From the IMG/VR virus record IMGVR_UViG_3300007522_000367, positions 23,059-87,058 of that record: 64,000 nucleotides of DNA; one strand, given 5' to 3'. The position numbers and the translations under genes are program-made. This DNA is from a virus. The notes under the pieces are model-generated. The model was given only the letters and a program-made list of their open reading frames with translations, was not told where the DNA came from and searched no databases. Below are positions 407 through 29,449 of this stretch, piece after piece. Positions within the stretch are counted from its first letter, which is position 1, and every line of letters begins with the position of its first letter.

Positions 407-1153
407 ATGAATAAATTTCTTATAACTGGTATACCGCGAAGTGGAACAACTATAATTGTCAAGACATTAGCTAAATTAAATGATGTCGAAGTATACAATG
501 ACCAGGATGGTTTTGGAGAACCGTTTAAAATAGTTAACAAAAAATTAGATTTAAATCCATATTTACGTCTAACAGCAGTTGAAGATAAATGTAATTCAAA
601 ATATTTTGGATTTAAATGTTTCCCCGGCGACTTATTAGATATTAATCAATTAAATGAACAACGTAATTATAAAACATTTGCAATTATAAGAAAAGATATT
701 TGGAAGGCTTTATTCAGTTATTGTGTTGCTAAAACAAAATTTGTCAGAGATAGTACAGACATATTTAAACATAGTTCAACATTACACACACAGCGTCCTT
801 TACAAATTTATATCGATGACTGGCAAAGTCCACTAAATCAAATGATAAGACATTCTTATTTTTGGAGAGTAAAATCGTGTTATGAATTTGAAACACAGTG
901 GAAAAATACAGATATAATTTATTTTGAAGATTTAATCAAACCAAATGCAAGCTTCGAGTGTTTAAATGAGTACTTTGGACAAGAAATAATTTTCAATTTA
1001 GATTACGACGATAGTCATGACACCGAGTCGTATTACGCTAACTTTAGTCCAGAAGTTTTATCTAAATTGTCTAAACATATGTTAAGTACGATAGTTCTTC
1101 CATATGACTGTCCTGACTATATTAAACAGTCTATATATAAATTTATAAAATAA
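407..1153 (+). CDS. PAPS-dependent sulfotransferase (Stf0-like)
   Basis: N-terminal 5'-PSB loop ITGIPRSGTT; 3'-PB-like IIRKDIWKALFSY; IYFEDL motif. Confidence 0.8.
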   Translation: MNKFLITGIPRSGTTIIVKTLAKLNDVEVYNDQDGFGEPFKIVNKKLDLNPYLRLTAVEDKCNSKYFGFKCFPGDLLDINQLNEQRNYKTFAIIRKDIWKALFSYCVAKTKFVRDSTDIFKHSSTLHTQRPLQIYIDDWQSPLNQMIRHSYFWRVKSCYEFETQWKNTDIIYFEDLIKPNASFECLNEYFGQEIIFNLDYDDSHDTESYYANFSPEVLSKLSKHMLSTIVLPYDCPDYIKQSIYKFIK

Positions 1154-1156
1154 TAC

Positions 1157-1185
1157 TTGACAATATATTGCAGATCAAGTATAAT
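1157..1185 (+). promoter_or_regulatory. consensus sigma70 promoter, predicted leaderless panD mRNA
   Basis: TTGACA (1157-1162), 17-nt spacer, TATAAT (1180-1185), then 6 nt to ATG at 1192; no Shine-Dalgarno. Confidence 0.8.
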
Positions 1186-1191
1186 AAATGT

Positions 1192-1542
1192 ATGAAAGAA
1201 TACATACACGGTAAAATACATAATATAAGCGTAACTGCTAAATCAATTAACTATCATGGTAGCGTAACTGTTTGCTCGTATCTGTTAGAACAAGCAGGTA
1301 TAGACCACTATCAAAAAGTAGATATTGTAAATCTACATAATGGACTTAGATGGACTACATATACTGTCCCAGGTCCTTTAGGATCATTTGAACTAAATGG
1401 TGGTGGCGCTAGGTTAGGTGAAATTGGCGATAAATGTGTAGTTATCGCATACGAGATGAAAGAGCAATTCGTTGGTTCAAAGGTAATTTTTTGTACTACC
1501 TACAACGGAGTAGAAGAAGTTATTGACTACCCTTTGCTTTAA
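1192..1542 (+). CDS. panD: aspartate 1-decarboxylase (pyruvoyl-dependent)
   Basis: KIHNISVT..INYHG/SVTV with Gly-Ser autocleavage site, WTTY catalytic Tyr region, LNGGGARL..GDKCVVIAY; start moved to ATG 1192. Confidence 0.88.
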   Translation: MKEYIHGKIHNISVTAKSINYHGSVTVCSYLLEQAGIDHYQKVDIVNLHNGLRWTTYTVPGPLGSFELNGGGARLGEIGDKCVVIAYEMKEQFVGSKVIFCTTYNGVEEVIDYPLL

Positions 1543-2278
1543 TAAACGGTAAAAAGATTACACTAGGGTCAAATTCGTTTTTTGAAGCAAAACTATAATT
1601 GCTAGGAGTGTTGTGATGATTATTATGTAATGCTTGTCCCCATGTAAGCAATCCTAATAGTTTAAGATTATAAGAATTATCTGTAGTTTCATGACTTCTA
1701 TAACCAAACCACCCACTGTGGCAACTAATATTAACAATTGCTTCTTGATGGAAACTCCATGCTGCTGGTACTATCCAAAACCATAAAGTAAAGGTAGGAA
1801 CAGTTAACAGTCCTACTACTAATACGCTCCAAATAATAAAAATATAATATTTGTTTAAGAATAGATGAAATGAATTTTTATATATGTCTTTGACATGTCT
1901 AGGATTTATGTTATCTATACTTTTAGAATGAAGCCATCCAATGTACGCATGAAACAATCCGTCTTTGGGACTATGCGGATCGCCCTTAGCGTCTGCATGT
2001 TTGTGATGCATGCCTCTATGAACACCCGCCCACCATATTGGTGTTCCTTGAGCACATAATGTTGCTAATACTAATAAAGGTTTTTCTAACCAAGGTTTTA
2101 GTTCTATTGATTTGTGAGATACGTACCTATGTAATATAGTTGCGGATCCTAATCCGCAAAATGTAATCCATCCTAGTAGTAAGTAAATCCAGTTAATTTC
2201 TGTAAAAAATATTGCAAATAGTGCAACTAACTGCACGACATAAAATACAAAAAATAAACTACTATTTTTCTTTGACAT
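1520..2278 (-). CDS. membrane fatty-acid desaturase (delta-9/DesC-like)
   Basis: His boxes HRYVSH, HRGMHHKH, HNNHH; GDPHSP; hydrophobic transmembrane segments. Confidence 0.88.
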   Translation of the reverse strand: MSKKNSSLFFVFYVVQLVALFAIFFTEINWIYLLLGWITFCGLGSATILHRYVSHKSIELKPWLEKPLLVLATLCAQGTPIWWAGVHRGMHHKHADAKGDPHSPKDGLFHAYIGWLHSKSIDNINPRHVKDIYKNSFHLFLNKYYIFIIWSVLVVGLLTVPTFTLWFWIVPAAWSFHQEAIVNISCHSGWFGYRSHETTDNSYNLKLLGLLTWGQALHNNHHNTPSNYSFASKNEFDPSVIFLPFIKAKGSQ

Positions 2279-3105
2279 TAGTATCCACCTTCGTTGTCTT
2301 TGATGTGTTGTAAAAACGGAACAACGTCAAATTGTTCAGTCATTCTTCCTCTTATAGAATTAGTGTCTTCGTCGAACCCGTCAGACACTCCGTTCCAATT
2401 AGTTAAATTTATTCTAAATCCTTTATGCTTTATAGCATAACTATATTGGTTATCTTCTAAAGTTCTAATATTTTCAATTTTTAATTTTTCACAAACTAAG
2501 TTCTTAAGTTCTGTAAATTTATAAGTATCGTTGGTCATGTACCGACCAACCTGTCCAATGTTCCTATATTCTATACTTGTACCAGACTTTACATTTCTCT
2601 CTTTTAAATAATTAAATATTTTTTCTATTAGATGTTCGTTAAGACCTTTAACAATAATACAACCAATTGACAATCTTAAATTTAGATCAATTACATTATT
2701 AAGTGCTTTCATTTTTCCTTTAGCACATTTAGCAAGATCAGTTATTTCATATACACTGTCTTCGTCAAACCCAGTCATACTTAAATAAACAGTTTTTAAT
2801 CCTGCATCTTTTAATAGATTTAGATATGCTTTGCTTGCTATTTTTAATCCGTTTGTCGCAATACTAGTACGATGTCCTTTTTCAACAGCATAAGCAATAA
2901 TTTTATCCAAGTCGGGATGAAGTGTAGGTTCACCGCCTATAAATCTAAATTCAGTTGGATAATCAAATTTATCAATAAAGGAAAACATTTTTTCTTTATC
3001 TATATCTGGATAAAGTCTATTGGGAAGATAACAGTTAGCACATTCCATATTACATCTATGAACAATATCGCAGTATACTGATCTATATTTTAAATTAGTT
3101 ATCAA
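2278..3105 (-). CDS. radical SAM protein (MoaA-like core, no auxiliary cluster)
   Basis: CNMECANC (CxxxCxxC), GGEPTLHP, TNG; TTG start with AAGGTG RBS. Confidence 0.88.
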   Translation of the reverse strand: MITNLKYRSVYCDIVHRCNMECANCYLPNRLYPDIDKEKMFSFIDKFDYPTEFRFIGGEPTLHPDLDKIIAYAVEKGHRTSIATNGLKIASKAYLNLLKDAGLKTVYLSMTGFDEDSVYEITDLAKCAKGKMKALNNVIDLNLRLSIGCIIVKGLNEHLIEKIFNYLKERNVKSGTSIEYRNIGQVGRYMTNDTYKFTELKNLVCEKLKIENIRTLEDNQYSYAIKHKGFRINLTNWNGVSDGFDEDTNSIRGRMTEQFDVVPFLQHIKDNEGGY

Positions 3106-3224: not shown

Positions 3225-3251
3225 TAATCATGAAAAGAGGTGTTAGCAGTT

Positions 3252-4496
3252 ATGAAACAAAAAATACTAGTTCCGAATCAAGGCATGCCTAATCAATTTT
3301 TTTTAAAAAGTTGTAGAGATCGCGGCATAGAATTAGATATTATTGTTGATTTAAGTTACGTGCTCCTTACTGACGATGTGTTAAAACACGAACAAGTACT
3401 AGGTAATAAAATTGTTTTAAATGAAAAATTAAACAAACTTGTTATAACAGATAAAATTAAAGAACACTATCAAGACACACAGTTAGATTATATCTACCCT
3501 AGTTGGTTTGATTTTCGAATTATGGCTATGGCGCACATAAACGAAAAACTAAACATACCGGGACTAGGCCTTGATGCTGCGTTAAAGATTTTTGACAAAT
3601 TAACGTATCAAACTATTCTAGAAAAAGAAGGAATAACGCTACCTAAAATTATTTCATGCTTAGATCCATATAGTGAGCAATATTTTTACAACAATGCCGT
3701 GTTTCCTCTAATTGCCAAACCAGTAAAAGGTACAGGTAGTTTAGGTGTAAAAGTATTACAAAGTACTAAAGAAGCAACTGACTTTTTTAAAGATTACGAT
3801 ACTCCGTTTAACTCTTTTTGCGAGAAAGGACAAACCGGATACAAGCACTACGACTATCATTGTTTAGGTAGTTGCTATATACTACAGGAATATATAGACG
3901 GTGATCTAGTGAGCGTGTCAGGGCATGTAATAAACAACAAAGTAAATGTAGACCTAGTTTATGATATAAAAAGTTCAGAGCTTCCGTATCGAGCGGAAAT
4001 AGGATTTACGTATCCAAGCAAACACAATAAAGAAAAATTAACTACTATTATTAAAAAAATAATAAAAACGTTGGAGATAGATAACAGTCCCTTTATGATG
4101 GATTTTATTTACAAAGATACTACATTTTATTTGATAGACTTTTCTGCGAGGTTTAGTACTAGTACACAATATATTATGAACTATTTAGGCGAAAAAGATT
4201 ATGCGTTTAACGTTGTAAATAAAATTTTAAACAATGTAGATTTTGATATTGATTTGCAAAACTGTATCAGTATAAGACACTTGCCTATTGAAAAAGGTAA
4301 AATCAAGTATATTAACATAGATACTACCGAATGTGTAACAGCACAGTTGCCAAAAACGGGATCCCAGCACTATAGTTCAAGGATAGATGCTTACGCAGGA
4401 AACAAAGGATTTATAGTTGCAGAATCTAACGACTTATTGTCTTTAGAAGAAAAAGTTAATAGGATACTAAAAACATTGGAGGTAGAGTATGTTTAA
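3252..4496 (+). CDS. ATP-grasp ligase (L-amino-acid-ligase-like)
   Basis: DKLTYQ, PLIAKPVKGTGSLGV, ILQEYIDG, YLIDFSARF; C-terminal LAL-like extension; RBS GAGGTG before ATG 3252. Confidence 0.85.
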   Translation: MKQKILVPNQGMPNQFFLKSCRDRGIELDIIVDLSYVLLTDDVLKHEQVLGNKIVLNEKLNKLVITDKIKEHYQDTQLDYIYPSWFDFRIMAMAHINEKLNIPGLGLDAALKIFDKLTYQTILEKEGITLPKIISCLDPYSEQYFYNNAVFPLIAKPVKGTGSLGVKVLQSTKEATDFFKDYDTPFNSFCEKGQTGYKHYDYHCLGSCYILQEYIDGDLVSVSGHVINNKVNVDLVYDIKSSELPYRAEIGFTYPSKHNKEKLTTIIKKIIKTLEIDNSPFMMDFIYKDTTFYLIDFSARFSTSTQYIMNYLGEKDYAFNVVNKILNNVDFDIDLQNCISIRHLPIEKGKIKYINIDTTECVTAQLPKTGSQHYSSRIDAYAGNKGFIVAESNDLLSLEEKVNRILKTLEVEYV

Positions 4497-5058
4497 GTTA
4501 AAAGTGTTAGACAAGTCGCATTTACTCGACATATTAAAATTAAACAACGATAGTAAAAAAGTGTATGGTAGTACTAAAACTTCCTTGTACAATCGCGAAT
4601 ACGAAAACTGGATAATCGAAATTCTAAATTTTAATAATAAAGAGTCTGAGATACTAGGAATATTTAATGAAGGAAACGAATTAATACAGTATGCGTTATA
4701 TTATCACATAAGTACATGGCCTGCTGTTGTAGTAGACCATTGGCGTAGCTCAACTGCTCACAAACATAAAGGTGTATTAGCAGCAACAGAATGGACTAAA
4801 ATGTTTGCTGAATACATAGCAAAAAAAGACATATTTGTTTGGTACATTGTTGTTGAAAAAGATATGTGGGATAGATACACTACGCTACAAAAAGATCGAT
4901 TCAACAAAGAACCTCCAAATTATAGATTTTTATTAGAAGAAGTTCCGGCAGGTGAAAGAAGCAAGTTTTTATCGTTTAATACATACTTATTAAAAAATCA
5001 AACATATGATAAAGCCATGTATGTATTTCAAATGGTAAATAAAGATAAATATTACTAG
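4489..5058 (+). CDS. hypothetical protein, possible GNAT fold
   Basis: GNAT-like secondary pattern (LKVLDKSHLLDILKL...ILGIFNEGNELIQYA) but no canonical acetyl-CoA motif A. Confidence 0.4.
   Translation: MFKLKVLDKSHLLDILKLNNDSKKVYGSTKTSLYNREYENWIIEILNFNNKESEILGIFNEGNELIQYALYYHISTWPAVVVDHWRSSTAHKHKGVLAATEWTKMFAEYIAKKDIFVWYIVVEKDMWDRYTTLQKDRFNKEPPNYRFLLEEVPAGERSKFLSFNTYLLKNQTYDKAMYVFQMVNKDKYY
5045..5051 (+). promoter_or_regulatory. putative late promoter ATAAATA
   Basis: ATAAATA followed by AGGAG RBS and ATG 5068. Confidence 0.5.
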
Positions 5059-5067: not shown

Positions 5068-5478
5068 ATGCAAAAACATACTATAAAAGTTGAAATACCG
5101 ACAACAGTAACTACCCACTTACAATGTCAGATCGCAGTATTAGACATGCTAGGCGAACAAGGCGGTAAAGACTTCACTAATCTTATTATTAAATATAAAC
5201 ACAATGGAGATATTTGGTTCTATAACTTAGATATCCAAGCCGAAGGTGATCAAAAATTTATGTATGCAACACGAGTCTTTGATTCAGCAAAAGCTAAAGA
5301 ATCCTTTGTCACCGAAGCTGCTGAGTATTTTAGCGGTATTGGTGCAACAGTAGTAAGTGACGAAGCAATAACGTTCGAAGCGTTTGCCGCATATGCTGCT
5401 GACAAAAATGAATCTATAGGTATTCCGGCTAAGTTTGCGCCGCCTGGTACGGAGCCACATCCAGAGGAATTGGAGTAA
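5068..5478 (+). CDS. hypothetical protein
   Basis: 136 aa ORF with strong AGGAG RBS. Confidence 0.7.
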   Translation: MQKHTIKVEIPTTVTTHLQCQIAVLDMLGEQGGKDFTNLIIKYKHNGDIWFYNLDIQAEGDQKFMYATRVFDSAKAKESFVTEAAEYFSGIGATVVSDEAITFEAFAAYAADKNESIGIPAKFAPPGTEPHPEELE

Positions 5479-6178
5479 GAACAATATAGTTGGGCCTAGT
5501 AGGCTGTGTGATTGCGTTATTTGTTTTATTATAACAAACGAATAATACATTCCTATCTACTTCACTAGTATTACGCCCGCTGTAGTGCAATGTATTTGCA
5601 TGCATACATATTACGTCTCCTGCCTTGCCAGTCAACTGTATCGCACTACAATTAGTCTTAGACACCATATCGTCGTCAAGTATTCCTTGCGATTCATCAG
5701 CACTATGCTTTATGGTCCACTTAGAGTCGTTAATTTTTGGTACCGGTAAGTTTTGACTTTTTTCTAAAACAGTTAACGGACCATTGTTTTTTGTCATATC
5801 ATCAAGTAAAAACAATACGCTGATAGCATCAGGATTGTTCATTCCATCAAAATTTTTCCAATATGTGTAGTCACTATGCCAAGCATATTCGCCGCCAGTT
5901 TGTGCTTTTTTATAATTAATATGACATTGGTGAATGTATATGTCTTGTCCTAATATTTCTTTAACAAAATCAATTACATTGTTATTATAGATAAACTCAT
6001 TTATTGTCTTGCTCTTCCAATGCGGCGCAAATAAACTTCTAATTGTATTGTTGTCTTCTATAATGTAAGTTTCATCTAATGGTTCGTTTTCTAAACGGAT
6101 AGCTTCTTTTTTTAATTCCGTTGCATCAAATACCTCTTTCAAAATTAAATATCCGGTTTGTAAATATCCGTTGATCAT
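5429..6178 (-). CDS. PhyH-family 2OG-Fe(II) dioxygenase, ectoine/proline hydroxylase-like
   Basis: YIHQCHINYK...YAWHSDYTYW..FDGM resembles the EctD signature; NGPL, distal His in HANTLHYS, RNVLFVCYN. Confidence 0.82.
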   Translation of the reverse strand: MINGYLQTGYLILKEVFDATELKKEAIRLENEPLDETYIIEDNNTIRSLFAPHWKSKTINEFIYNNNVIDFVKEILGQDIYIHQCHINYKKAQTGGEYAWHSDYTYWKNFDGMNNPDAISVLFLLDDMTKNNGPLTVLEKSQNLPVPKINDSKWTIKHSADESQGILDDDMVSKTNCSAIQLTGKAGDVICMHANTLHYSGRNTSEVDRNVLFVCYNKTNNAITQPTRPNYIVLTPIPLDVAPYQAAQT

Positions 6179-7041
6179 TTTTCTACCTCTAATAGTTTTG
6201 TTAATTTGTGTGCTTCTAATGTAAAGACACCATTATGATATTTTTTCAAGTCATCAAATTTTTTAAGAACTTCATTCATTAACGGTGTTTTCTCAATTTC
6301 TTCCCATCCTGTATATTTTGGACGATCATTAAATGTATAATGTTTTGAATATATTATAGGCTTACTAGTTCGTGTACTTAGCTTGCCCGGGTGCTTATTG
6401 GCTATAAGTTCCCGCACTCTAGGCTCTTGTAAAAAGCTCAATGTCATTTCAGGAGTGTATCTTAAAAAATCTGGAGTACCGTCTATGCTTTCATTAGCAT
6501 ACCATTTCATGTAGCTATTTACTCGTTCAGTTTCTTCATACGTCCATATTGAATCAAAGTTTTTAAGGTAAGGCTCGCCATTTGCCATAACAATAGTCCC
6601 ATCTAATTGTAAAATTCCATACATGATGCTAGGTATTTGGTATGCGCAACACTTTACACTATTAGCAATGTCGAATATTTTTTTAGAACTTATAAATTTT
6701 TCAATATCAACATTAACTACTATAGGTGTAATATTGTGTAATTTACAATAATCAAACGCAAATGCAGTATCGTGTGCGTTATAATGTCCGTAACTTATTA
6801 TGGCAGTCTTAAAAGGAACTTTTGCTGTCTTAAAAACATTTAACATAAATTCACTGTCAAGTCCTCCACTAAACATTAATGTTATAGGAGAAGACGAATT
6901 TTCATAGAGTATTTGAGCTGCAAAAACAGCTTCGTCATGAAAGTTTTTTATATCACTACGGGTACATTTTTTAATGTTTACTGACCAACTATCACCTGTT
7001 CCGCTAGTTGTAAAATAATCATTATACGTTGTTGCTGTCAT
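6175..7041 (-). CDS. PP-loop (adenine nucleotide alpha-hydrolase) enzyme, asparagine-synthetase-like synthase domain
   Basis: LMFSGGLDSE PP-loop motif; no glutaminase domain. Confidence 0.7.
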   Translation of the reverse strand: MTATTYNDYFTTSGTGDSWSVNIKKCTRSDIKNFHDEAVFAAQILYENSSSPITLMFSGGLDSEFMLNVFKTAKVPFKTAIISYGHYNAHDTAFAFDYCKLHNITPIVVNVDIEKFISSKKIFDIANSVKCCAYQIPSIMYGILQLDGTIVMANGEPYLKNFDSIWTYEETERVNSYMKWYANESIDGTPDFLRYTPEMTLSFLQEPRVRELIANKHPGKLSTRTSKPIIYSKHYTFNDRPKYTGWEEIEKTPLMNEVLKKFDDLKKYHNGVFTLEAHKLTKLLEVEK

Positions 7042-7050
7042 ACTTACCTC

Positions 7051-7057
7051 ATAAATA
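7051..7057 (+). promoter_or_regulatory. putative late promoter ATAAATA, 4 nt before ATG
   Basis: ATAAATA-cgtt-ATG(7062); no SD. Confidence 0.55.
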
Positions 7058-7061
7058 CGTT

Positions 7062-7733
7062 ATGAATCATTTTAAACCTATCAATTTTGATTTTGACCAA
7101 GAACAAATCTATAACGATCTTGTAAACATGGATATCTTTGATAAAAGTTTTCTTGCTACAGTTATTTACAACAATGGTCGTAGCAAGTACGACCAAGATG
7201 GCTTTTTTAACGAGTACAACGACGTTGTACACTATAACGAAAATAAAGAAATAGTTAACGGAAAATTTAATACATTTGTGACTTATAACTTTACACACTT
7301 ACCCGGAATTGAAGAAACTAACAACAATAGTTTTATAGATACTCCTGAAGGAAGACGGCCTATATGGCAAGTGTATGATACAGCATGGGAGTGGAAAAAG
7401 GATACTCCAAAATCACTTAAGGCTGTAGTAGAACAATTAAATTTAAAATATATAAGCTGTGTGAGATTAGTAGGACAAACTCCTCCTAGTAAAGGAATTG
7501 TACATGTAGATTCAGGAATAAAAGATAATTTAAAATATTATCGAAACGGAGGTGTAAGTATTACACTAAACGTATCTGACGGAGGAGGTAATTTACAATT
7601 TAAGTCTCCTGGAGGATTAGAAACTGTAGACGAAAGTAAACATAAAGCATGGCACTTTAATGATGCGTTGCCGCACTGTACAACTGAAATTACTAGTCCT
7701 AGAATACAAGTAAGAGTGTTTGGAAAACAATGA
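7062..7733 (+). CDS. 2OG-Fe(II) oxygenase-like (Asp/Asn beta-hydroxylase-like DSBH)
   Basis: HVD...HCT...RIQVRVF (HxD..H..R); start moved to ATG 7062. Confidence 0.7.
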   Translation: MNHFKPINFDFDQEQIYNDLVNMDIFDKSFLATVIYNNGRSKYDQDGFFNEYNDVVHYNENKEIVNGKFNTFVTYNFTHLPGIEETNNNSFIDTPEGRRPIWQVYDTAWEWKKDTPKSLKAVVEQLNLKYISCVRLVGQTPPSKGIVHVDSGIKDNLKYYRNGGVSITLNVSDGGGNLQFKSPGGLETVDESKHKAWHFNDALPHCTTEITSPRIQVRVFGKQ

Positions 7734-8910: not shown

Positions 8911-8915
8911 GAAAA

Positions 8916-8922
8916 TATTTAG
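8916..8922 (-). promoter_or_regulatory. putative late promoter CTAAATA, 5 nt before ATG
   Basis: CTAAATA-ttttc-ATG(8910); overlaps the upstream stop codon. Confidence 0.45.
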
Positions 8923-11141: not shown

Positions 11142-11144
11142 ACT

Positions 11145-12568: not shown

Positions 12569-12645
12569 TTTTTGCACTCCTATAGTCATTAATGGTCTGC
12601 ATTTGTTAATCGCGGCCAAGGTAGTTCTACAAAATATTCAGGCAT
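12552..12645 (-). pseudogene. probable internally deleted gene remnant
   Basis: MPEYFVELPWPRLTNADH* starts in an ATGCCTGA overlap with the upstream stop; out-of-frame tail TINDYRSAKNELLR* overlaps the GNAT start. Confidence 0.45.
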
Positions 12646-16249: not shown

Positions 16250-16255
16250 ATTTTT

Positions 16256-21009: not shown

Positions 21010-21016
21010 TACTTAT
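21010..21016 (-). promoter_or_regulatory. possible variant late promoter ATAAGTA, 5 nt before ATG
   Basis: ATAAGTA-cttac-ATG(21004); lies within the palindrome TAAGTACTTA. Confidence 0.35.
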
Positions 21017-22080: not shown

Positions 22081-23023
22081 ATTTTATGTATTCTTCTATA
22101 GGAGGTTTTTTATGATTATTGCTATCTGGTATGCCAGCTTCGGCGTTATATACCGGGCAATGATATGTAAGAGCCTCAGATTTATAACCAATTCCTAAAT
22201 ATAATTGAGGATGTATTCCAATATCCTCGACCATGTCGTTATCATTTTGTATACAAGCACAAAATCCAACAGCCAATCCAACAGCAGGAGCAGCAAGACT
22301 AACATACATTGCTGCAAGCCCTATTTCAACTCCTGCTTCATAGAGATAGTAATTTTTATCAACTCCGTCTTGCGGAGTTCCTCTAATGCCAAAGGCAAGA
22401 ACATAAGGTGCAAGTACCTGAGGATTATATCTTGATTTTGGATTACCCGGATCTGCTTCAGTGCCTTTATACATCTTTTGTTGTAACTCAGGCAGCGTAT
22501 GTGTAGGAATAATACGCAAGTCATATCTAACTCGGCGTTGTTTACTTGGCACGTAGTTGTGTATACCTCTTACAATATCATCTATTAAATGCTGTTCAGG
22601 TATTTGATCTGTCCAATTATATGTATTGATTCTATTATTTGCGAGATATTCAAAAGACCCTAATTCATAAATTGGTTTATTTAAAATATTGTTTATTGTA
22701 ATAGATACTAAGCTATCAACTTCAACAGACGGACAAATTTCGTTTATCAAAGTATTAATTATTTTATAAGTTTTTACTTCAACATCAGTTGTTCTTAACT
22801 GAGACTTTCCTCTGTTCCAAAATCTACTGGTAATATTCTGTGTTCTAGTAGTATTAGTATTTTCTAAATCATATATCCATGCATCATACACATAACCAAT
22901 ATCTCTATAGCACTTTTCAAATTCAGTAGTACGATTAGGATAAGATTTTTTAATCCATTCTACTGATTGCTCAATTATAGATTTTTTATTTTCTTTTAAA
23001 ATTTTAATTATGTTCATTGTCAT
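22073..23023 (-). CDS. nitroreductase-family flavoprotein with an N-terminal helical domain
   Basis: C-terminal RINTYNW..PSKQ..APYVL..EIGLAAMYVSLAA..GLAVGFCAC..LGIGY; N-terminal KCYRDIGYVYDAWIYDL. Confidence 0.7.
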   Translation of the reverse strand: MTMNIIKILKENKKSIIEQSVEWIKKSYPNRTTEFEKCYRDIGYVYDAWIYDLENTNTTRTQNITSRFWNRGKSQLRTTDVEVKTYKIINTLINEICPSVEVDSLVSITINNILNKPIYELGSFEYLANNRINTYNWTDQIPEQHLIDDIVRGIHNYVPSKQRRVRYDLRIIPTHTLPELQQKMYKGTEADPGNPKSRYNPQVLAPYVLAFGIRGTPQDGVDKNYYLYEAGVEIGLAAMYVSLAAPAVGLAVGFCACIQNDNDMVEDIGIHPQLYLGIGYKSEALTYHCPVYNAEAGIPDSNNHKKPPIEEYIKYV

Positions 23024-23241
23024 TCCAGTACTAACACTACATCTTTGCCTGGACCTACTTTGCTAGGTAAGTCTCCATATTGCTCTACATACCATTTAAT
23101 AACCGCGGTGTACCAATTTTGACTATTATGATGTGCTTGTTTATTAAACTGATATATGTTATTGTTTGTAGCTTCCATAGTACTTATCGCACGGGCACTT
23201 TCGGTCTGGAGCTGTCTGAGTGTAAGATTACTTATATCCAA
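23020..23241 (-). CDS. small hypothetical protein
   Basis: 73 aa ORF overlapping both neighbours in the operon. Confidence 0.7.
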   Translation of the reverse strand: MDISNLTLRQLQTESARAISTMEATNNNIYQFNKQAHHNSQNWYTAVIKWYVEQYGDLPSKVGPGKDVVLVLE

Positions 23242-23989
23242 TTTTCATAAACCTAGTATAGTTGGAAAGAAATAATTCACCTTCAAATTTAACATCTGAC
23301 ATAGGAGCTGACTTACTAAATGTATCTAAGTCAGCACTACAATTTATATGATCTTCTATTTCAAAGTAATTGTTGCTTTGTAATACTACTAATTTGCCAT
23401 CCGGAATCTTTGAATACCATTCTTCGAAATTTTCTATGTGTTCGCAACTTGTGTTAATAATAGTATCAGGCGTATCAGCTAAAGGACACGTTGTTCCGTC
23501 AGCTCTAATTACTTCGTAGTTTTCGAACTCATAATTAATATCCATGATATCTTTTGTAGATGATTTAAATTGCCAGTTATCCTTAACCCACGGGTTATTA
23601 AATGTTTCAGCAATACTTCGGCAACTAGGATCAATGTCAAAACTTCTAACTTTATTTACTTTAATGTTACTTTCAAATAACATTGTAGCAAGTGTAGCAT
23701 ACCATCCTGCACACAAGAATACTGTGCCTAAATCAACTTTAAGTTCACTAAGTTCTTTTACTAACCATAGTTTGCTTTCTAGTTGTCCTCGGCTAAAACA
23801 GTCTGCATTAAAACTGTCATCGTCCTTATACTTACGCATACCTTCAATTAATTGACTGCCTGTTAATCCTTGTATAATTCTAAACAATGCAAACTTATCT
23901 TGACTTAATAAGGTTTTTCTAAGATCACTAAAGATAGAGTTATCCGGGTATAGTAATTCTAATCTATCTAGTATTTCAGCAATCTGCAT
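23228..23989 (-). CDS. class I SAM-dependent methyltransferase-like
   Basis: VFLCAGWYATL (motif I), RSFDIDP (motif II), IINTSCEH. Confidence 0.7.
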   Translation of the reverse strand: MQIAEILDRLELLYPDNSIFSDLRKTLLSQDKFALFRIIQGLTGSQLIEGMRKYKDDDSFNADCFSRGQLESKLWLVKELSELKVDLGTVFLCAGWYATLATMLFESNIKVNKVRSFDIDPSCRSIAETFNNPWVKDNWQFKSSTKDIMDINYEFENYEVIRADGTTCPLADTPDTIINTSCEHIENFEEWYSKIPDGKLVVLQSNNYFEIEDHINCSADLDTFSKSAPMSDVKFEGELFLSNYTRFMKIGYK

Positions 23990-24647
23990 TGTATTTCTCC
24001 TTAAGCCAGTTAAAGTCGTTTATCAACCCAAGATCAGCCCCGCTAGAAAGCCCGTACTTCCTGCCAGCACAAGCACCTTTAATAGCATATTCGCCGAAGG
24101 GAGCATCTCCTCCCACTGTTGTCCATATTTTGAGTCTTTCATTTGTTTCTTCCTCGTTTTGTCTATCTATTATTTTACTTGCAAGTTTAGTACATTCTCT
24201 AAATGCACTACGCCATGTACTAAATTCATCTACATTAAATGCAGTGATATTACTAACTTGCTCCATAGGAATAAATTTAGTACTGATGCTTGTGGTCATA
24301 TCTGGTTTACTAGTGTCCATGTGTAATGTTGCTATTCTAGGAAGCAATTTTACACCACCGTATCCGTATTCTAGATCATTAATAGGATTGCGGCTACGCC
24401 ATACATGTACAGCATCTTTATTAGTTCGGTTTGGAACATAAGAAAAATCAAAGTCATCTACAATAAGTGCATCGGCGTCAACAATCCATACCATATAAGT
24501 AAATGCTTTTTTTGCTGCTTCAATATGTGCTTGATGTATTCCTTTAACTCCGTGAACACGCATAGCCCACGGCACTTGTGCTTTTAGGTTGTTCCAGTTT
24601 ACATCAGCTTGGATTTCGTTATAACTTATAAAAATTACATCATACAT
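23976..24647 (-). CDS. glycosyltransferase-like (GT-A fold)
   Basis: YDVIFISYNE...RVHGVKGIHQAH...WIVDADA (DxD)...YGYGGVKL; start moved to ATG 24647. Confidence 0.65.
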   Translation of the reverse strand: MYDVIFISYNEIQADVNWNNLKAQVPWAMRVHGVKGIHQAHIEAAKKAFTYMVWIVDADALIVDDFDFSYVPNRTNKDAVHVWRSRNPINDLEYGYGGVKLLPRIATLHMDTSKPDMTTSISTKFIPMEQVSNITAFNVDEFSTWRSAFRECTKLASKIIDRQNEEETNERLKIWTTVGGDAPFGEYAIKGACAGRKYGLSSGADLGLINDFNWLKEKYNADC

Positions 24648-25992
24648 TGCTGTTCTCACATAGCTTGTAAAATTCTTTGTACTCTGGAAATACTTCTAAA
24701 AAGTTTTTATTTCTACGACGATCGTACTCATTTACAAATTGCACAAATCCAAATCTGTCTGCACTTACATTAATTTTCTTTTTGAAACGAGCAAGGCAAT
24801 CGTTGTATATTCTTTCTAATTTAAAAATCTCATCCATTTTAAATCGCTTGTTCTTTTTTCTTCGTTCGATCATAAAATCTATAGTAGTCTTTAGATATGT
24901 TTCAATCATTTCCTCAGTTGCAATTTTAATGTCAAGGAACTCTGGGTGCCTAACATATGCAAAATCCATAACTACTCGTTCGCCAAAGTCTCGTTTTAAT
25001 TTTTCTATATGACAAACAAACTTGTGGATTGTGGGCAAACTTAAAATATTAAATGCACTCATAAAACAAACCTTAATATCAGTAGTTTGTTCCAAAAAGT
25101 ATTTAATATTTGAATCAAATAATTTCCAATCCATTCCGTCTCTGCTGTATTCGGCTTGTCCTTTAACACTTTCTGCACTTGTATATAAACTAAATGATTT
25201 AATAGATTTTGAAACTTCTAATTCTTTTATAGAATTAACAAATTCTTTCCATAATAATTTTGGAGGACATGCATTACTGTTTATAGCAAAATCTAAATTA
25301 GGCTGAGGATTGTTAATTAAATATTGAATAACCCGTTTAGTGTGTTTACTTAATAACGGTTCGCCGCCTGTAATTCTGAATACGTGCATATGCTGTACTG
25401 CTTCAGGAAACCATTTCCAGAATGCTTCAATATACGGATTTTCTTCTCTTTCAAGAATAGGAATTTCTGTTTCCTTAATACTATTATAATGGTTGTTTTT
25501 TAATATGTAAGCACCATTTGCTTTTATTTCATCAGTCCATTTGCTACTAAATGCCGGGCCGCAGTATGTACATTTAAAATTACAAACGTTTGAGAAACTA
25601 ACTTCTACATATCTTGGATATATATTTTCGTCTCCTGTTGACGTGATTATTTTCTTTTTATCAGTCTGGCTCCATGTTTCAGAACTTTTAGTAATTCTAT
25701 CACTAAAGTTATTAGTATTATCTTCAATTCGCCAACAATAATCACATTCGGCAGGACGCTTGCCTGCAAGCATTTCTTTTCTAATTTCTTTTTTAAAATT
25801 AGTGTTATGTAATGCACTCGGATTAACTGCAAGTTCATCTAATGGAATTTTATGGGCACCTACATGATGACAACTATGTGTTATGCCAGATCCAAGATGC
25901 ATAGTTACTTGTGTCCATTTAGCCAGGCAAAATCCACAGCCAACAGCATCTAATTCTTTTTTAACTTGTGGTAAGGAATCTAAATTAATCAT
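24640..25992 (-). CDS. N-terminal Twitch/SPASM-domain radical SAM protein
   Basis: FCLAKWTQ..HSCHH...ECDYC; CNFKCTYC; TGGEPLL; YDRRRNKNFLEVFPE. Confidence 0.9.
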   Translation of the reverse strand: MINLDSLPQVKKELDAVGCGFCLAKWTQVTMHLGSGITHSCHHVGAHKIPLDELAVNPSALHNTNFKKEIRKEMLAGKRPAECDYCWRIEDNTNNFSDRITKSSETWSQTDKKKIITSTGDENIYPRYVEVSFSNVCNFKCTYCGPAFSSKWTDEIKANGAYILKNNHYNSIKETEIPILEREENPYIEAFWKWFPEAVQHMHVFRITGGEPLLSKHTKRVIQYLINNPQPNLDFAINSNACPPKLLWKEFVNSIKELEVSKSIKSFSLYTSAESVKGQAEYSRDGMDWKLFDSNIKYFLEQTTDIKVCFMSAFNILSLPTIHKFVCHIEKLKRDFGERVVMDFAYVRHPEFLDIKIATEEMIETYLKTTIDFMIERRKKNKRFKMDEIFKLERIYNDCLARFKKKINVSADRFGFVQFVNEYDRRRNKNFLEVFPEYKEFYKLCENSNV

Positions 25993-26900
25993 TCTGGATC
26001 AATTACAAATTGTTGTGCAGGATTTCTACTAGGATTTTGATATACTATTTTAAAGAATTTACTTTGTTGAGCACTTAATGGAGTTTCAGCAATTGGTATT
26101 TTTAACTCATTAATAAGTTTAATACCATACGTGTCTGTTTTGTGTTTAATATCTTCGATGCCTGCAAAGGAAGTAGTCCATAAGTCATTTAAATATTTAA
26201 AGTCTCTAACTTGAACAAAGTCCCAATCTGTACACATTGTCATATACAGACCCGCTCTTGCTCCTAATATAGCCCAGTCACCGTTTTGTACATCTGCACC
26301 TATCATTAACCAAATCCAAAGTCGGTGTAAGTTTTTCCAATGACCTTTTAATAACTGTTCTTTTGTAGGCTTTGCTCCTTGATCGAGTGCCATTTTAACA
26401 CCTTCGCGGAATCCAGCACGCCATGCTTGTTGTGCTGTAGTGTTGTTATGTACATCAGAGTAACAACTATTTTGTTGAATGTACTGTAAGTCCCAACAGA
26501 AGTCTACTTGAGCTGCTATATTATCAGCATCTGCATTTTCGTGTGTACGCATGTTAAGAACATATTCTTTGGGCCAGCATTTGAGACCGCCGTTGCCGTA
26601 CATCAATCCGTTAATTTCGTTTTTGCCACACCAACTAATAACACTAGATTCTAAATCACTGCCCTGCGGAATATCTAATATTTGTTCTAAAAAGCCAGGG
26701 CGTACAATATTGTCACCATCAACAGTAATAAAACGATCTGTTTCGCTTAATTCTGCACATGCTTTGTGTGCAGCATCTGAACCTTCTACACCGTGTACAC
26801 GTTTTGCCCACGGTGCTTTAGTAAGCAAGTCAGCATAGTTTTTTTCTGCATTGGGTTCGTCATATGACAGATAGATAATATCGTAATCAATAATTCTCAT
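25989..26900 (-). CDS. glycosyltransferase-like (GT-A fold), paralog of 23976..24647
   Basis: YDIIYLSYDE...RVHGVEGSDAAHK...TVDGDN (DxD)...YGNGGLKCW...AWRAGFREGVKM. Confidence 0.65.
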   Translation of the reverse strand: MRIIDYDIIYLSYDEPNAEKNYADLLTKAPWAKRVHGVEGSDAAHKACAELSETDRFITVDGDNIVRPGFLEQILDIPQGSDLESSVISWCGKNEINGLMYGNGGLKCWPKEYVLNMRTHENADADNIAAQVDFCWDLQYIQQNSCYSDVHNNTTAQQAWRAGFREGVKMALDQGAKPTKEQLLKGHWKNLHRLWIWLMIGADVQNGDWAILGARAGLYMTMCTDWDFVQVRDFKYLNDLWTTSFAGIEDIKHKTDTYGIKLINELKIPIAETPLSAQQSKFFKIVYQNPSRNPAQQFVIDPE

Positions 26901-27458
26901 TTATTGCTCCTGTACATTATGTATGTGTTTTACATGATGCTCGCTACACAAAAGGCTTACACGCTGTTTACACACTTCTACATTATAATTTTTTAATGTA
27001 ACCGTATCGCATAATGCAAGTGTTTTTAAATTAACTTGCAATGTATCTAATAGTATAAATCGATTGCTAGGATCAACTACATAGTACTCCTTAATATAAT
27101 TTTCTCCTTGTGCAAACATTGCACATACTATATCATCCATTGTACTTGTAGCTGTCCAAGTACAGTTAAACAAGTCTTGATTTAAAATAATTGCATTATG
27201 ATCTATTACTTGCTTAACAATAATACCCCTAGACTGTGCTCGGTCTTCTGCCTTGTCAATGTGTTTGAGTACAATGTGTATCTTACCTTTTATTTTTGCA
27301 TTTTCAATTACAATGTAATCTAATATTTGCTTGATGCCGTTTGAAAAGTCAGTATATGTTTGTAAATCAACTTCAATATAATATTCGCCAAAAGAATCGT
27401 CTGTTATATTAGCAACTGCTGTGATGTTACCGTCGTCGTTATAATAAATGTAATACAT
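26901..27458 (-). CDS. hypothetical protein
   Basis: 185 aa ORF, translationally coupled in the operon. Confidence 0.7.
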   Translation of the reverse strand: MYYIYYNDDGNITAVANITDDSFGEYYIEVDLQTYTDFSNGIKQILDYIVIENAKIKGKIHIVLKHIDKAEDRAQSRGIIVKQVIDHNAIILNQDLFNCTWTATSTMDDIVCAMFAQGENYIKEYYVVDPSNRFILLDTLQVNLKTLALCDTVTLKNYNVEVCKQRVSLLCSEHHVKHIHNVQEQ

Positions 27459-28264
27459 TACACACGCTCCTCAAGCCATCCTAACATGTCTACTGTTAAA
27501 AATTCATCTTCAACATAATGCAATACGCCTGATTGTTTATATCCACCTATATAAAGTGTATCATTGCCAAAATCTATAGGTAACACATCAGTCCATTTAC
27601 TCGGTACATGACTCCAATTTTGTACTTGAGCTTTCATATGAGTAAATGTTAGATTATTATTAATTTTAGAGTCTAAAATCGTTAGTGCAACTGCGGCACT
27701 GAGATCTACACTATTCCAATTTTGCATGTCTTTAGGAGCATATTGTTGATAAAATACTTTCCAGTTTGTCATTATTACATCTAATAATTTAAAAAAATTA
27801 TGAGCTTCGTCGCATTTTGAAAATTTATACATGCCGGTGTATATATTAGGTAAATTGTTTGAATCAAATGTTTTTCTATAGTATCTATTAGTTACTAATT
27901 CGTTTCTATATGTAGTTACTTTATTTGTAAAAATAATAGGATCAATATTTTCCCATATTGGAGTAATATTATCTAATATTAACATATCAGCATCAAATAC
28001 TAGGGTATTTCTATAAGGAGTTAAATGGTAGATTTTCCAACGATTATCTATTTTCCAATCAGAGTTTTTTGCTAAATCGCCCCAAGGTATAGAAATAACT
28101 TGATCAAATACATCTTTATATGCTGTTGGAATTACTTCATCAGTTATAATACTAATATTTGTGCCAGGTGCGGTTGCAAGAATACTTAATGCCAATGCAT
28201 ATGCTTGTTGTACATAATCTGTTTTACTATTATTTTGTGCAAGTACACATACACCATTACTCAT
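27458..28264 (-). CDS. glycosyltransferase-like (GT8-like)
   Basis: DYVQQAYALALSI...TPYRNTLVFDADML (DxD)...FTHMK...LHY; start moved to ATG 28264. Confidence 0.68.
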   Translation of the reverse strand: MSNGVCVLAQNNSKTDYVQQAYALALSILATAPGTNISIITDEVIPTAYKDVFDQVISIPWGDLAKNSDWKIDNRWKIYHLTPYRNTLVFDADMLILDNITPIWENIDPIIFTNKVTTYRNELVTNRYYRKTFDSNNLPNIYTGMYKFSKCDEAHNFFKLLDVIMTNWKVFYQQYAPKDMQNWNSVDLSAAVALTILDSKINNNLTFTHMKAQVQNWSHVPSKWTDVLPIDFGNDTLYIGGYKQSGVLHYVEDEFLTVDMLGWLEERV

Positions 28265-29105
28265 TTGCAAACTCCTTGTCAATAAACGAGTTTAAGCTAA
28301 ACTTATTCATAATGTGAACAGTTGCATCTGTAAATTTTACTGGAAGATAATCATATGACTTATGTGCAAGTAATTTAATAACGTTATTATTAACATCTAT
28401 TAAAATATCGTTATCCGTTGATACCCACATATCACTAGGTAATTGTTTAGGCCACTCGGTGCTATTTTCAAATCCACGCATCATATGCATTGTAATACTG
28501 AATGCAAAATCGTTTCTAAATTTAGATTCAGTAATATCATATACTGTTCTATAATAATTGTAATTTTCTTTAATATGTTCTACTAAGTCAAATACTGTTT
28601 TTGCAGTATTGCTTTTTGTAAAATATAATATAGTAGCCCAATACATTGGAATAGTTTTATCACTTACTCTATCAAAACTTAGCTCTGTGCCTTGATTAAC
28701 TAAATTGTAATGATTTGCAATCATAAAATCTTCATTAGTATCAAAACATGCTAGTAACTTATCATTTGATACAAATAAATCAGTATCAATTACAATTGTT
28801 TTATCAAATACGCTTAACTCGTATACACTATTGCGAGAAGAGTTTTTCCATTCTAATTTTTTACTTGCATATAATCCGTCATTAAATGTTTTAACAGAAT
28901 TATTAATAGGTGCAGCAATGTGTGATACAACATCAATATAATTTTTATAAAACGGGTATTCTGATTCAAGGTAATCAACTGTATCTGTAATCAGTTGTAC
29001 AGGTAAGTTTAAATACTGTTTTACTCGCTTTGCACAATATACTGCTTGCTTTACATAATCAATACTGCTGTTGTTAAATGCAAAAAGTACAACACCTTGC
29101 TTCAT
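28257..29105 (-). CDS. glycosyltransferase-like (GT8-like), paralog of the neighbour
   Basis: DYVKQAVYCA...SVFDKTIVIDTDL (DxD)...FRNDFAFS...VHIMNK. Confidence 0.65.
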   Translation of the reverse strand: MKQGVVLFAFNNSSIDYVKQAVYCAKRVKQYLNLPVQLITDTVDYLESEYPFYKNYIDVVSHIAAPINNSVKTFNDGLYASKKLEWKNSSRNSVYELSVFDKTIVIDTDLFVSNDKLLACFDTNEDFMIANHYNLVNQGTELSFDRVSDKTIPMYWATILYFTKSNTAKTVFDLVEHIKENYNYYRTVYDITESKFRNDFAFSITMHMMRGFENSTEWPKQLPSDMWVSTDNDILIDVNNNVIKLLAHKSYDYLPVKFTDATVHIMNKFSLNSFIDKEFANE

Positions 29106-29449
29106 AAATCAACCAATCCTTGTACTGATCTATTTTTTTTAATTGTTTCGTAGTCAACGGCATATTTACGTGATGCAACTGCATAGACTCCTATTAGTTC
29201 TTTTGCAAATTCGTTAACATCAGGAATCATAAAAGGAATACTGTTATCATCTAGTACAACTGCACCATCTGGAATTGTTTTTGACAACGTATAGACAAAA
29301 TTAATTAGTTCTTGTGTAACAGTAAACTTATGGCCGTGAATATAATGCACAAGGTTTTCTTTATACTGTGCAAGAAAAATACGTTTTTGGTTGTTTTGCG
29401 TTGCTAAAAAATTAGAAAACTCTAATGCTTTACTTAATCTTTCGTCCAT
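29102..29449 (-). CDS. hypothetical phage protein
   Basis: 115 aa ORF with GGAG RBS; first gene after the sigma70 promoter. Confidence 0.7.
   Translation of the reverse strand: MDERLSKALEFSNFLATQNNQKRIFLAQYKENLVHYIHGHKFTVTQELINFVYTLSKTIPDGAVVLDDNSIPFMIPDVNEFAKELIGVYAVASRKYAVDYETIKKNRSVQGLVDL

Follow-up and report, generated by a model that had tools for sequence, protein, structure and literature searches.

What do the tailoring-enzyme genes beside the tail fibres of a large marine phage make, and where is the product placed? We addressed this question in a 64-kb window (the whole stretch analysed, 64,000 nucleotides), which corresponds to bases 23059-87058 of the 87-kb IMG/VR virus record IMGVR_UViG_3300007522_000367. 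A preliminary description had read the region at 0.4-29.4 kb as a single system of about 30 enzymes that hypermodifies the virion; its observation was partly confirmed and its interpretation is partly supported. Judged by its relatives, the enzyme-rich region is a composite of backbone and cargo at the convergent end of the structural operon, because 15.1-29.4 kb is conserved in related phages and 0.4-15.1 kb has no close counterpart there. By the same comparison, roughly half of the reported 29 kb belongs to a conserved cassette and the rest is lineage-specific cargo. We estimate at roughly 0.55 the probability that the cassette produces an unusual sugar or short glycan and tailors it by radical chemistry, using soluble cytoplasmic enzymes that are promoted separately from the fibres.

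The nearest cultured relative is Pseudomonas phage PA5oct (Arenbergviridae), to whose counterpart the SbcD-like protein is 49% identical and whose giant protein matches at 30% identity over about 1,870 residues (78% of a 2,200-residue query). When 49 kb of the window were compared with cultured phages by megablast, no match was returned, although near relatives may be lacking from the set searched. Related IMG/VR records span 251-382 kb, one of them rated complete, and psbA was absent from the five that were checked. A cyanophage origin was rejected on the lack of psbA in these five records and on PA5oct being the best cultured relative. On these comparisons the source is an uncultured marine jumbo myovirus, PA5oct-related and about 350-380 kb in size. 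The ‘moraphages’ (PMC12619734), whose hosts are Bacteroidota and whose genomes reach 307 kb, are a separate lineage and are not tied to the present phage. The minus strand of the window carries a T4-type structural operon, and all genes from 8341 to 61026 lie on this strand, so that the enzyme block is co-directional with the fibres as first described; a gene for a late-transcription sigma factor and SbcD/SbcC-type genes lie on the plus strand at 61-64 kb. PA5oct has a homologous baseplate, giant-protein and three-fibre module, which is followed directly by small genes on the opposite strand, and the island is absent.

Every open reading frame (ORF) was scanned against Pfam, NCBIfam and PHROG. 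Phage relatives were the best 80 of 281 IMG/VR matches to the protein encoded at 19589-21004 (83-95% identical), and the phage percentages and locus counts below refer to these. Three long records (G001, G002 and G004) were extended to about 81 kb each for synteny. They have in common the order baseplate, giant protein, 233-amino-acid (aa) protein, three fibres, 301-aa protein and 115-aa protein, followed by a backbone. The backbone begins with two GT8-like genes, a GT-A-like gene and an N_Twi_rSAM gene of the radical S-adenosylmethionine (SAM) type, and continues after a variable stretch with a GT-A-like gene, a methyltransferase-like gene, a 73-aa gene and a 21013-type radical SAM gene. A further variable stretch leads to the 19589-type radical SAM gene, and another to the 15134-type. 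The N_Twi_rSAM gene that follows the GT-A-like gene is present in G002 and G004, and G001 has no orthologue at that position. Backbone genes are 51-87% identical across the 80 loci, which likewise keep their order and place behind the structural module; the stretches between them differ. The 15.1-29.4 kb region is thus, as far as synteny can tell, a conserved cassette with swappable inserts, and in the window its backbone comprises two GT8-like, two GT-A-fold, one methyltransferase-like, one 73-aa and six radical SAM genes (four of them N_Twi_rSAM). The linkage to the fibre module, which the preliminary description had proposed to look for in relatives, holds in every long relative examined; the cluster is therefore not unlinked from tail genes there.

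The remaining 0.4-15.1 kb behaved differently. No close homologue of it was found in the G001, G002 and G004 composites, the weak exceptions being desaturase matches in G001 (28-31% identical) and, in G002, a match to 13713-14447 at 31%, and the co-directional cargo genes at 8341-15243 are present in only 0-11 of the 80 loci. Beyond the corresponding stretch, the relatives carry a conserved convergent plus-strand block of non-structural genes. By this distribution the 0.4-15.1 kb segment is cargo specific to the lineage; part of it lies on the other strand, and it need not feed the same product. The notion of one system of about 30 enzymes was given up, as this part lacks counterparts in relatives save weak paralogue-level matches, lies partly on the opposite strand and contains desaturase-type auxiliaries.

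All eight of the radical SAM genes claimed earlier were recovered. Seven (2278-3105, 8919-10388, 15134-16249, 16399-17583, 17543-18730, 19589-21004 and 24640-25992) score above the Pfam cut-off; the eighth, 21013-22080, lies 0.7 bits under it (28.8 vs 29.5 bits) and has the CxxxCxxC motif and 70-80%-identical orthologues. Four of the genes match NF033640 (N_Twi_rSAM; curated cut-off 170 bits) over their full length, and the remaining four reach 33-46 bits against this model or are unlisted, which places them outside the family. In the four N_Twi_rSAM paralogues the N-terminal set expected for an auxiliary Fe-S cluster (C12, C31, C93 and C96), followed by C149, C153 and C156 of the CxxxCxxC motif, is invariant, and the Pfam SPASM domain is placed at residues 12-97 or 17-88, ahead of the radical SAM domain. 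NF033640 is a sequence definition only; here the family is represented by four paralogues tied to two other radical SAM types and to glycosyltransferase (GT)-like genes. The 19589, 21013 and 15134 types form a core trio. The best Protein Data Bank (PDB) relative of the 21013-type protein is BlsE, a cytosylglucuronate decarboxylase (E=2.4e-5), and the 15134-type protein is 59-69% identical in Bdellovibrionales, with over 100 invariant columns. A literature search returned no characterised N_Twi_rSAM member and no paper on the reaction of the family, and likewise no paper on the three-gene core or its Bdellovibrionales counterpart.

The four DxD glycosyltransferase-like genes of the preliminary description held up through a profile match, a fold model and paralogy, none of the four having a Pfam match. 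The family profile of the paralogues 27458-28282 and 28257-29105 matches glycogenin-1 (GT8; E=0.002) over its nucleotide-binding, DxD-containing half. The AlphaFold2 model of 23976-24659 (predicted local distance difference test score, pLDDT, 90.5) gave Foldseek top matches to GT-A-fold nucleotide-sugar enzymes, nearly all of them glycosyltransferases. The first was the capsid-glycosylating transferase 2p6w of PBCV-1 (E=1e-4; template-modelling score, TM, of the top matches 0.36-0.49), and D61xD63 is invariant. Neither the GT-A-like nor the methyltransferase-like family gave a useful match when its profile was searched against PDB sequences. Profile or fold thus supports all four genes as glycosyltransferase-like, and their catalytic activity is predicted.

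The other backbone and insert genes fared unequally. The methyltransferase claimed at 23228-23989 had no Pfam, NCBIfam or PDB sequence match and is retained as a language-model lead (Atlas neighbour scores of 0.95; Methyltransf_31 on 21% of the neighbour’s members). The nitroreductase label of 22073-23023 was rejected, as it found no support in the Pfam, NCBIfam or PHROG scans. The swappable gene 18727-19605 gave a double-stranded beta-helix model whose Foldseek top matches were all 2-oxoglutarate (2OG) oxygenases (EvdO2 first, then ColD, EctD, PhyH and KanJ), and its H122, D124, H266 and K280 are invariant. The 115-aa protein that opens the block had no Pfam or PHROG match. Transmembrane-like segments were found only in the two desaturases of the cargo; all other island proteins are soluble.

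The block has promoters of its own. Sites equivalent to P1 (at least 10/12 matching positions) stand upstream of the 115-aa orthologue in 10/10 relatives, and the P2 equivalent reaches at least 10/12 in 29/37 and at least 11/12 in 27/37. As a control, the other backbone genes with loci to score carry a site of at least 10/12 in 0-2 of 9-71 loci. The -35 element is kept in relatives and TGn often precedes the -10 element. The -10 element of P2 lies so close to the ATG that a leaderless or near-leaderless mRNA is predicted; the 149-nt gap at 16250-16398 contains P2, and in two relatives (L025 and L028) the 16399-type and 15134-type genes are 12 nt apart. Promoters of the same sigma-70 class precede the late-sigma gene (12/12, 61055-61083), the SbcD-like gene and PanD. 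Since the block has its own conserved promoters, it does not simply belong to the fibre operon, and since these are of the host type, it is probably transcribed by unmodified host polymerase in early or middle infection, with late read-through possible. A virion target would still be compatible with such promoters because enzymes made early persist.

The core also occurs in bacteria. In a scan of one genome per prokaryotic species, which yielded 225 relatives of the N_Twi_rSAM proteins, the best matches were overwhelmingly Bdellovibrionales or Bdellovibrionota contigs, which reach 3 Mb in length; the isolate Bdellovibrio sp. HCB2-146 is among them. On Bdellovibrionales chromosomes the orthologue of the 19589 type shows 55-62% identity, and the trio stands together in 19 of the 26 bacterial loci with full flanks, mostly Bdellovibrionales, accompanied by GT-A-like genes in 10 and by the methyltransferase-like gene in 12. 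Gene orientations differ from those of the phage, and neighbours include housekeeping genes such as DnaG and SppA. By far the commonest neighbour family is GT2, with 13 of the 124 ORFs in twelve bacterial loci. In two Bdellovibrionales loci (L093:5878-7224, 448 aa; L103:6021-7262, 413 aa) the methyltransferase-like homologue lies in a longer ORF, which suggests an extra fused domain. Four further contigs had been binned as Arcticimaribacter, Neisseriaceae, Rickettsiales MED657 and Gammaproteobacteria MED685 (L090, L091, L116 and L161). In L091, L116 and L161 the genes stand in the order of the phage, and the 73-aa gene, which is phage-only, is among them; L090, of 2.9 kb, shares 93% identity with a phage radical SAM gene; by these features all four are probably mis-binned jumbo-phage DNA. 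Two Bdellovibrio sp. loci (L114:15278-17341 and L111:15332-17257) encode fibre-like proteins of 641-687 aa that are rich in Thr, Gly and Ala and end in a Peptidase_S74 intramolecular-chaperone domain. In Bdellovibrio sp. HCB2-146 and in one metagenome-assembled genome, about 6 kb separate a protein of this kind from the cassette. We dropped a fibre linkage in Bdellovibrio, as such neighbours occur in 3-4 of 77 loci, which by our own estimate is about chance level.

The neighbourhoods of the phage relatives point to sugars. We tallied Pfam matches in 140 representative ORFs without a homologue in the window, taken from related phage loci and fetched flanks. The tally showed further radical SAM genes, methyltransferases, AspH-type hydroxylases, nitroreductases, two cytidylyltransferase-family ORFs and a carbamoyltransferase, and also an NAD-dependent sugar epimerase/dehydratase, a DegT-type aminotransferase and a gene of the UDP-glucose/GDP-mannose dehydrogenase family. 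The dehydrogenase gene (a cluster of 10 members) lies in the upstream part of the relatives’ island and the epimerase and DegT-like genes lie inside the G002 and G003 islands; the cytidylyltransferase copies located in G002 and G003 fall outside it. Because of these nucleotide-sugar enzymes and the GT2 neighbours of the bacterial copies, we infer a sugar substrate. The matches to BlsE, a sugar-nucleoside decarboxylase, and to EvdO2, which acts on an oligosaccharide, are individually weak and point the same way as the neighbourhoods. The trio would probably rebuild a nucleotide-activated sugar, the GT-A-fold and GT8-like transferases would attach sugars to an acceptor, and the methyltransferase-like protein, the extra N_Twi_rSAM paralogues and the swappable 2OG oxygenases may diversify the product; both the substrate and this order of steps are proposals.

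Several observations weigh against a sugar-tailoring cassette with its own early expression. The window itself has no nucleotide-sugar enzyme. Neither the trio nor any N_Twi_rSAM member has a known reaction, and the sugar assignment draws on neighbours and on weak similarities (TM 0.34-0.49; E from 1e-4 to 2e-3), with the methyltransferase-like step a lead only. SPASM/twitch radical SAM enzymes often act on peptides, and the best PDB match of the N_Twi_rSAM profile is SkfB, a peptide thioether synthase. The Bdellovibrionales cassettes do not lie in classical O-antigen or capsule loci, Wzx, Wzy and ABC transporters being absent from the top 25 neighbour families. The promoter class is read from sequence only, and the 29450-29506 gap has no terminator-like site on the minus strand, so that late read-through from the fibres may occur.

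If a glycan is made, the adjoining structural module provides candidate acceptors. The fibre N-terminus is 37% identical to gp358 of PA5oct, a virion protein detected by mass spectrometry (MS), and the PA5oct module proteins (baseplate, giant protein and fibres) have likewise been MS-detected in virions. The three fibre paralogues are Ser/Thr-rich, as first described; Ser and Thr make up 17-23% of the fibres and the 301-aa protein, and other structural proteins here are similarly rich. The 4944-aa protein (36631-51465) has homologues in the MS-detected gp355 of PA5oct and in a structural protein of Agrobacterium phage Atu_ph07. Marine relatives align with its first 2,200 or so residues and with its last 2,000 or so (from about 2,700 or 2,900), and the middle has no match.

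The module differs from the enzyme block in its upstream signals. The exact T4 late promoter TATAAATA occurs once in the 64 kb (30439-30446) vs 13.7 expected, a strong depletion; it was unusable as a motif with a single occurrence, and the shorter ATAAATA was taken instead. ATAAATA stands 31-35 nt upstream of three structural starts, those of the wedge gene (51468-54983; site 55012-55018), the third fibre (site 31978-31984, at 31 nt) and the 301-aa gene (site within the exact TATAAATA at 30439-30446), where we estimate that chance alone would give about 0.06 placements of this kind. This position upstream of structural genes fits a T4-type late sigma factor, and ATAAATA is a candidate for the late promoter used by the gp55-like sigma factor whose gene lies at 61107-61934. 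A 2016 marine metatranscriptome contains contigs that match parts of 22.2-28.6 kb and of 30.3-30.9 kb (third fibre gene) at 90-95% identity. These show relatives in the sample, give no strand, start or level and may stem from DNA carry-over, and no conclusion was drawn from them.

Where the product would be displayed divides the readings, and virion and host envelope are inseparable by sequence alone; the split between these two acceptors leaves a remainder to others. Modification of the virion, in which the transferases would act in the cytoplasm to glycosylate the fibres, the 301-aa protein or proteins of the baseplate, and the radical SAM enzymes, oxygenases and methyltransferase would edit the glycan, is a possibility that we hold tentatively. 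It would explain why, in this lineage, the block always adjoins the fibre module and is co-directional with it. Soluble enzymes without export machinery fit a cytoplasmic protein acceptor, the top fold match of the GT-A model is a capsid transferase and the best match of the GT8-like pair is the protein-glycosylating glycogenin. The Ser and Thr content of the fibres and 301-aa protein is in keeping with it, and mycobacteriophages offer an earlier case of glycosylated phage virions (Freeman et al. 2023, cited in PMC12619734). However, the block has sigma-70-type promoters and not the late motif, PA5oct has a homologous fibre module but no island, the Bdellovibrionales core has fibre-like neighbours at about the chance frequency given above, other structural proteins are equally rich in Ser and Thr, and the fold similarities are weak. 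Host-type promoters would rather suit early remodelling of the host envelope, in which the lipopolysaccharide (LPS) core or O-antigen, the capsule or a membrane lipid is altered, blocking superinfection or the adsorption of progeny to debris; the same has been proposed for the host-recognition clusters of pelagimyophages and the LPS clusters of cyanophages. The absence of the island from PA5oct also agrees with this, as do published readings of similar fibre-linked glycosyltransferase and radical SAM regions (PMC7029224, PMC12801897, PMC7824862). The bacterial counterpart must serve a cellular product, the desaturases and AspH/LpxO-type hydroxylases of the cargo can act on lipids, and the turnover of cassettes between close relatives resembles the diversification of surface antigens. 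We nevertheless hold envelope remodelling to be slightly less likely than the virion reading: the window scans found no O-antigen or capsule hallmark (Wzx/Wzy or ABC export, initiating phosphoglycosyl transferase, membrane steps), no Gtr-type membrane protein and no transporter, no such export family is common beside the bacterial copies, and for none of the phage clusters cited is there an experiment.

Products other than a displayed glycan fit less well. The conservation of the 15134-type (59-69%) and 19589-type (55-62%) proteins between phage and bacteria suggests a fixed small substrate, and together with the weak similarities to BlsE and viperin-type enzymes and with the PanD, ATP-grasp and GNAT cargo, which resembles small-molecule chemistry, it might indicate a short natural-product pathway to a soluble modified nucleoside or sugar nucleotide, serving as metabolite or in anti-defence. 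We think this improbable, as no exporter or self-resistance gene is present, the viperin-family scores (43-49 bits) are far below the 180-bit cut-off, and four transferase-like genes with swappable cassettes better suit a displayed glycan. The absence of non-ribosomal peptide synthetase, polyketide synthase and transporter genes noted in the preliminary description was borne out, no such family being matched in the window scans. Direct side-chain modification without sugars, in the manner of peptides synthesised ribosomally and modified after translation (RiPPs), with the 73-aa protein or a fibre as substrate of radical SAM or AspH-type enzymes, would draw on the SkfB match, on the frequent action of AspH-type hydroxylases on proteins and on a conserved small ORF directly upstream of a radical SAM gene. 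The 73-aa protein was nonetheless rejected as a RiPP precursor: it is Cys-free, is evenly conserved without a variable core and is missing from the Bdellovibrionales cassettes, which keep the trio. Pfam and NCBIfam scans found no protease, transporter or RiPP-recognition match (sequence searches frequently overlook recognition elements), and the cassette is accompanied by glycosyltransferases and nucleotide-sugar enzymes, all of which makes a RiPP-like route quite improbable. Least credible to us is hypermodification of phage DNA, in which early transferases and radical SAM enzymes would decorate a modified base. The early-type promoters resemble the timing of the DNA glucosyltransferases in T4 biology, but the bacterial counterpart sits among GT2 and housekeeping genes, and no DNA-binding or base-flipping domain was found. 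A 5-hydroxymethyl-pyrimidine route was unsupported by a ThyA-family search, as the sole member in the complete relative scores as a true thymidylate synthase (338 bits).

Among described systems, the closest in layout is the host recognition cluster (HRC) of pelagimyophages and cyanomyophages, with fibres, glycosyltransferases (GT8 prominent) and radical SAM cassettes (Zaragoza-Solas et al. 2020, PMC7029224). Both are variable islands in the structural region after a giant protein (matched here by position), with fibres, glycosyltransferases and radical SAM cassettes that differ between relatives. However, the present lineage is PA5oct-related, has no psbA and carries a backbone of three radical SAM types with sigma-70 promoters of its own; and, whereas the HRC is bounded by the neck gene gp14, the far side here is the convergent plus-strand non-structural block. 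Because of this boundary we file the island as HRC-like, not as an HRC member. A64R of PBCV-1 is likewise a virus-encoded soluble GT-A-type transferase and is the top structural match of the 23976-24659 model, but at a TM of only 0.36-0.39 and 9-12% identity. The glycosylation system of PBCV-1 and the capsid and tail-tube glycosylation of mycobacteriophages lack radical SAM enzymes; the present system is known from its genes. LPS or capsule clusters of cyanophages and jumbo phages (P-SSM2, S-SCSM1, S-SCSM2R; Iyer et al. 2021) are polymorphic and combine several glycosyltransferase families and nucleotide-sugar enzymes, sometimes with a radical SAM ‘maturase’. They are dominated by nucleoside-diphosphate-sugar enzymes and glycosyltransferases, whereas radical SAM enzymes dominate here. 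The T4-related Campylobacter phages CP220 and CPt10 (PMC2853527) have 11-12 radical SAM genes, five of them in an interchangeable module of unassigned function; compared by description, those modules occur with amidinotransferases and were read as metabolic boosters.

The cargo retained most of the names given to it at first. The desaturases, PanD, the ATP-grasp ligase and one GNAT gave matches above the cut-off, and the PP-loop enzyme shows its motif; the sulfotransferase remains a weak lead. About ten 2OG-Fe(II) oxygenases had been claimed across the region. Three are firm (5429-6178, 18727-19605 and 14440-15243), two are weak and five show the HxD...H motif only. Pfam at E<=10 gave nothing for most of these cupin candidates, and hhalign among 15 unannotated island ORFs, all ten candidates included, linked only 14440-15243 with 18727-19605. 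Neither a Pfam domain nor a name is attached to the 106 homologues of 11145-11996. For PanD, a perfect 12/12 sigma-70 promoter at 1157-1185 overlaps the annotated TTG start; its -10 element ends 6 nt before an in-frame ATG at 1192, and the Pfam match begins just past this ATG. By this layout, which is like that of P2, translation of PanD probably begins at 1192, on an mRNA that has no leader or almost none. Relatives’ islands encode an asparagine-synthase-type amidotransferase and an ATP-grasp ligase (L010:7853-9124 and L010:17538-18743), so amide-forming enzymes recur in variable cassettes and are not confined to the cargo of this window.

Table 1. Features of the window, from the enzyme cassette through the structural module to the cargo (positions are those of the window).
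Position	Strand	Feature	Basis or remark
29472-29500	-	P1, sigma-70-type promoter, TTGACA-17-TATACT; heads the enzyme block	followed by a 22-nt leader with GAGGAG ribosome-binding site
29102-29449	-	115-aa protein, first gene of the block, no assigned function	orthologues at same position in G001, G002, G004
27458-29105	-	two paralogous GT8-like (DxD) genes, 28257-29105 and 27458-28282	paralogy and family profile
26901-27458	-	185-aa protein, poorly conserved	3/80 loci; no Pfam or PHROG family match
25989-26900	-	GT-A-fold glycosyltransferase-like gene, paralogue of 23976-24659	orthologues 68-70% identical in G001, G002, G004
24640-25992	-	N_Twi_rSAM, N-terminal auxiliary Fe-S domain	NF033640, 311.8 bits
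23976-24659	-	GT-A-fold glycosyltransferase-like gene	about 61% identical in 66 loci; 10/26 bacterial loci
23228-23989	-	methyltransferase-like protein	70/80 phage loci, 12/26 bacterial loci
23020-23241	-	73-aa Cys-free phage-specific protein	78% median identity in 67 loci, even over full length
22073-23023	-	316-aa protein, no assigned function, variable	12/80 loci cover at least 60% of protein, median 28% identity
21013-22080	-	radical SAM with C-terminal Cys cluster, core trio	75% identical in 77 loci; 44-46% in Bdellovibrionales
19589-21004	-	N_Twi_rSAM, core trio, best conserved island gene	NF033640, 423.7 bits
18727-19605	-	2OG-Fe(II) oxygenase, variable cassette	AlphaFold2 pLDDT 84.6, double-stranded beta-helix
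16399-18730	-	two N_Twi_rSAM paralogues, 17543-18730 and 16399-17583	NF033640, 300.3 and 402.6 bits
16256-16284	-	P2, sigma-70-type promoter, TTGACT-17-TATAAT; before radical SAM gene 15134-16249	-10 ends 6 nt before ATG
15134-16249	-	radical SAM, core trio, last backbone gene	Pfam 57.7 bits; 85% identical in phage loci
61107-61934	+	late-transcription sigma factor gene	46% identical to annotated PA5oct late sigma, E=3e-85
35991-61026	-	gp53-like, gp5-like, gp25-like, 1171-aa wedge protein, 4944-aa virion protein, 233-aa protein	same order as PA5oct
30442-35985	-	three paralogous tail-fibre genes, N-terminal domains in common	paralogy; one with Collar domain
29507-30412	-	301-aa Ser/Thr/Gly-rich protein, last gene with late-type promoter	homologues after fibres in G001, G002, G004
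14440-15243	-	2OG oxygenase, paralogue of 18727-19605	hhalign 99.9%
13713-14447	-	oxygenase candidate	HxD...H motif only
13219-13713	-	AspH-type, weak	Asp_Arg_Hydrox 17.1 bits
12638-13294	-	oxygenase candidate	HxD...H motif only
11993-12619	-	GNAT	above cut-off
11145-11996	-	AspH-like family, weak	beta-hydroxylase 7v4f, E=0.034
10389-11141	-	desaturase	FA_desaturase; the two desaturases score 57.8 and 58.5 bits
8919-10388	-	B12-type radical SAM	above Pfam cut-off
8341-8910	-	oxygenase candidate	HxD...H motif only
7730-8344	mixed-strand segment 407-8344	oxygenase candidate	HxD...H motif only
7029-7733	mixed-strand segment 407-8344	oxygenase candidate	HxD...H motif only
6175-7041	mixed-strand segment 407-8344	PP-loop gene	SGGLDS motif; QueC match 16.2 bits only
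5429-6178	mixed-strand segment 407-8344	PhyH 2OG oxygenase	90.5 bits, firm
5068-5478	mixed-strand segment 407-8344	unnamed ORF	
4489-5058	mixed-strand segment 407-8344	unnamed ORF	
3240-4496	mixed-strand segment 407-8344	ATP-grasp	above Pfam cut-off
2278-3105	mixed-strand segment 407-8344	radical SAM	above Pfam cut-off
1520-2278		desaturase	FA_desaturase; score as for 10389-11141
1168-1542	mixed-strand segment 407-8344	PanD	93.7 bits, own promoter
407-1153	mixed-strand segment 407-8344	sulfotransferase-like	weak, E=0.037

With relatives of the island in at least 281 IMG/VR contigs, the cassette is a common feature of large marine phages, and its core enzymes have no known reaction. Its portable core (three radical SAM types, GT-A and methyltransferase-like genes) is also present in at least one Bdellovibrio isolate genome, beyond metagenome bins, which offers enzymologists a tractable entry to new radical chemistry. 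For phage biologists, the placing of the sugar on the virion or on the infected cell can be tested, and the promoters predict that the block is expressed ahead of the fibres. We regard as rather unlikely the bolder proposal that the trio makes a new radical-derived sugar which the glycosyltransferases put on the phage fibres, Bdellovibrio-type predators using the same chemistry on their own surface. If true, it would mean that these phages and bacterial predators have a ‘predator surface-decoration’ toolkit in common, and, among phages of Gram-negative marine bacteria, the island would be the first system to glycosylate the virion.

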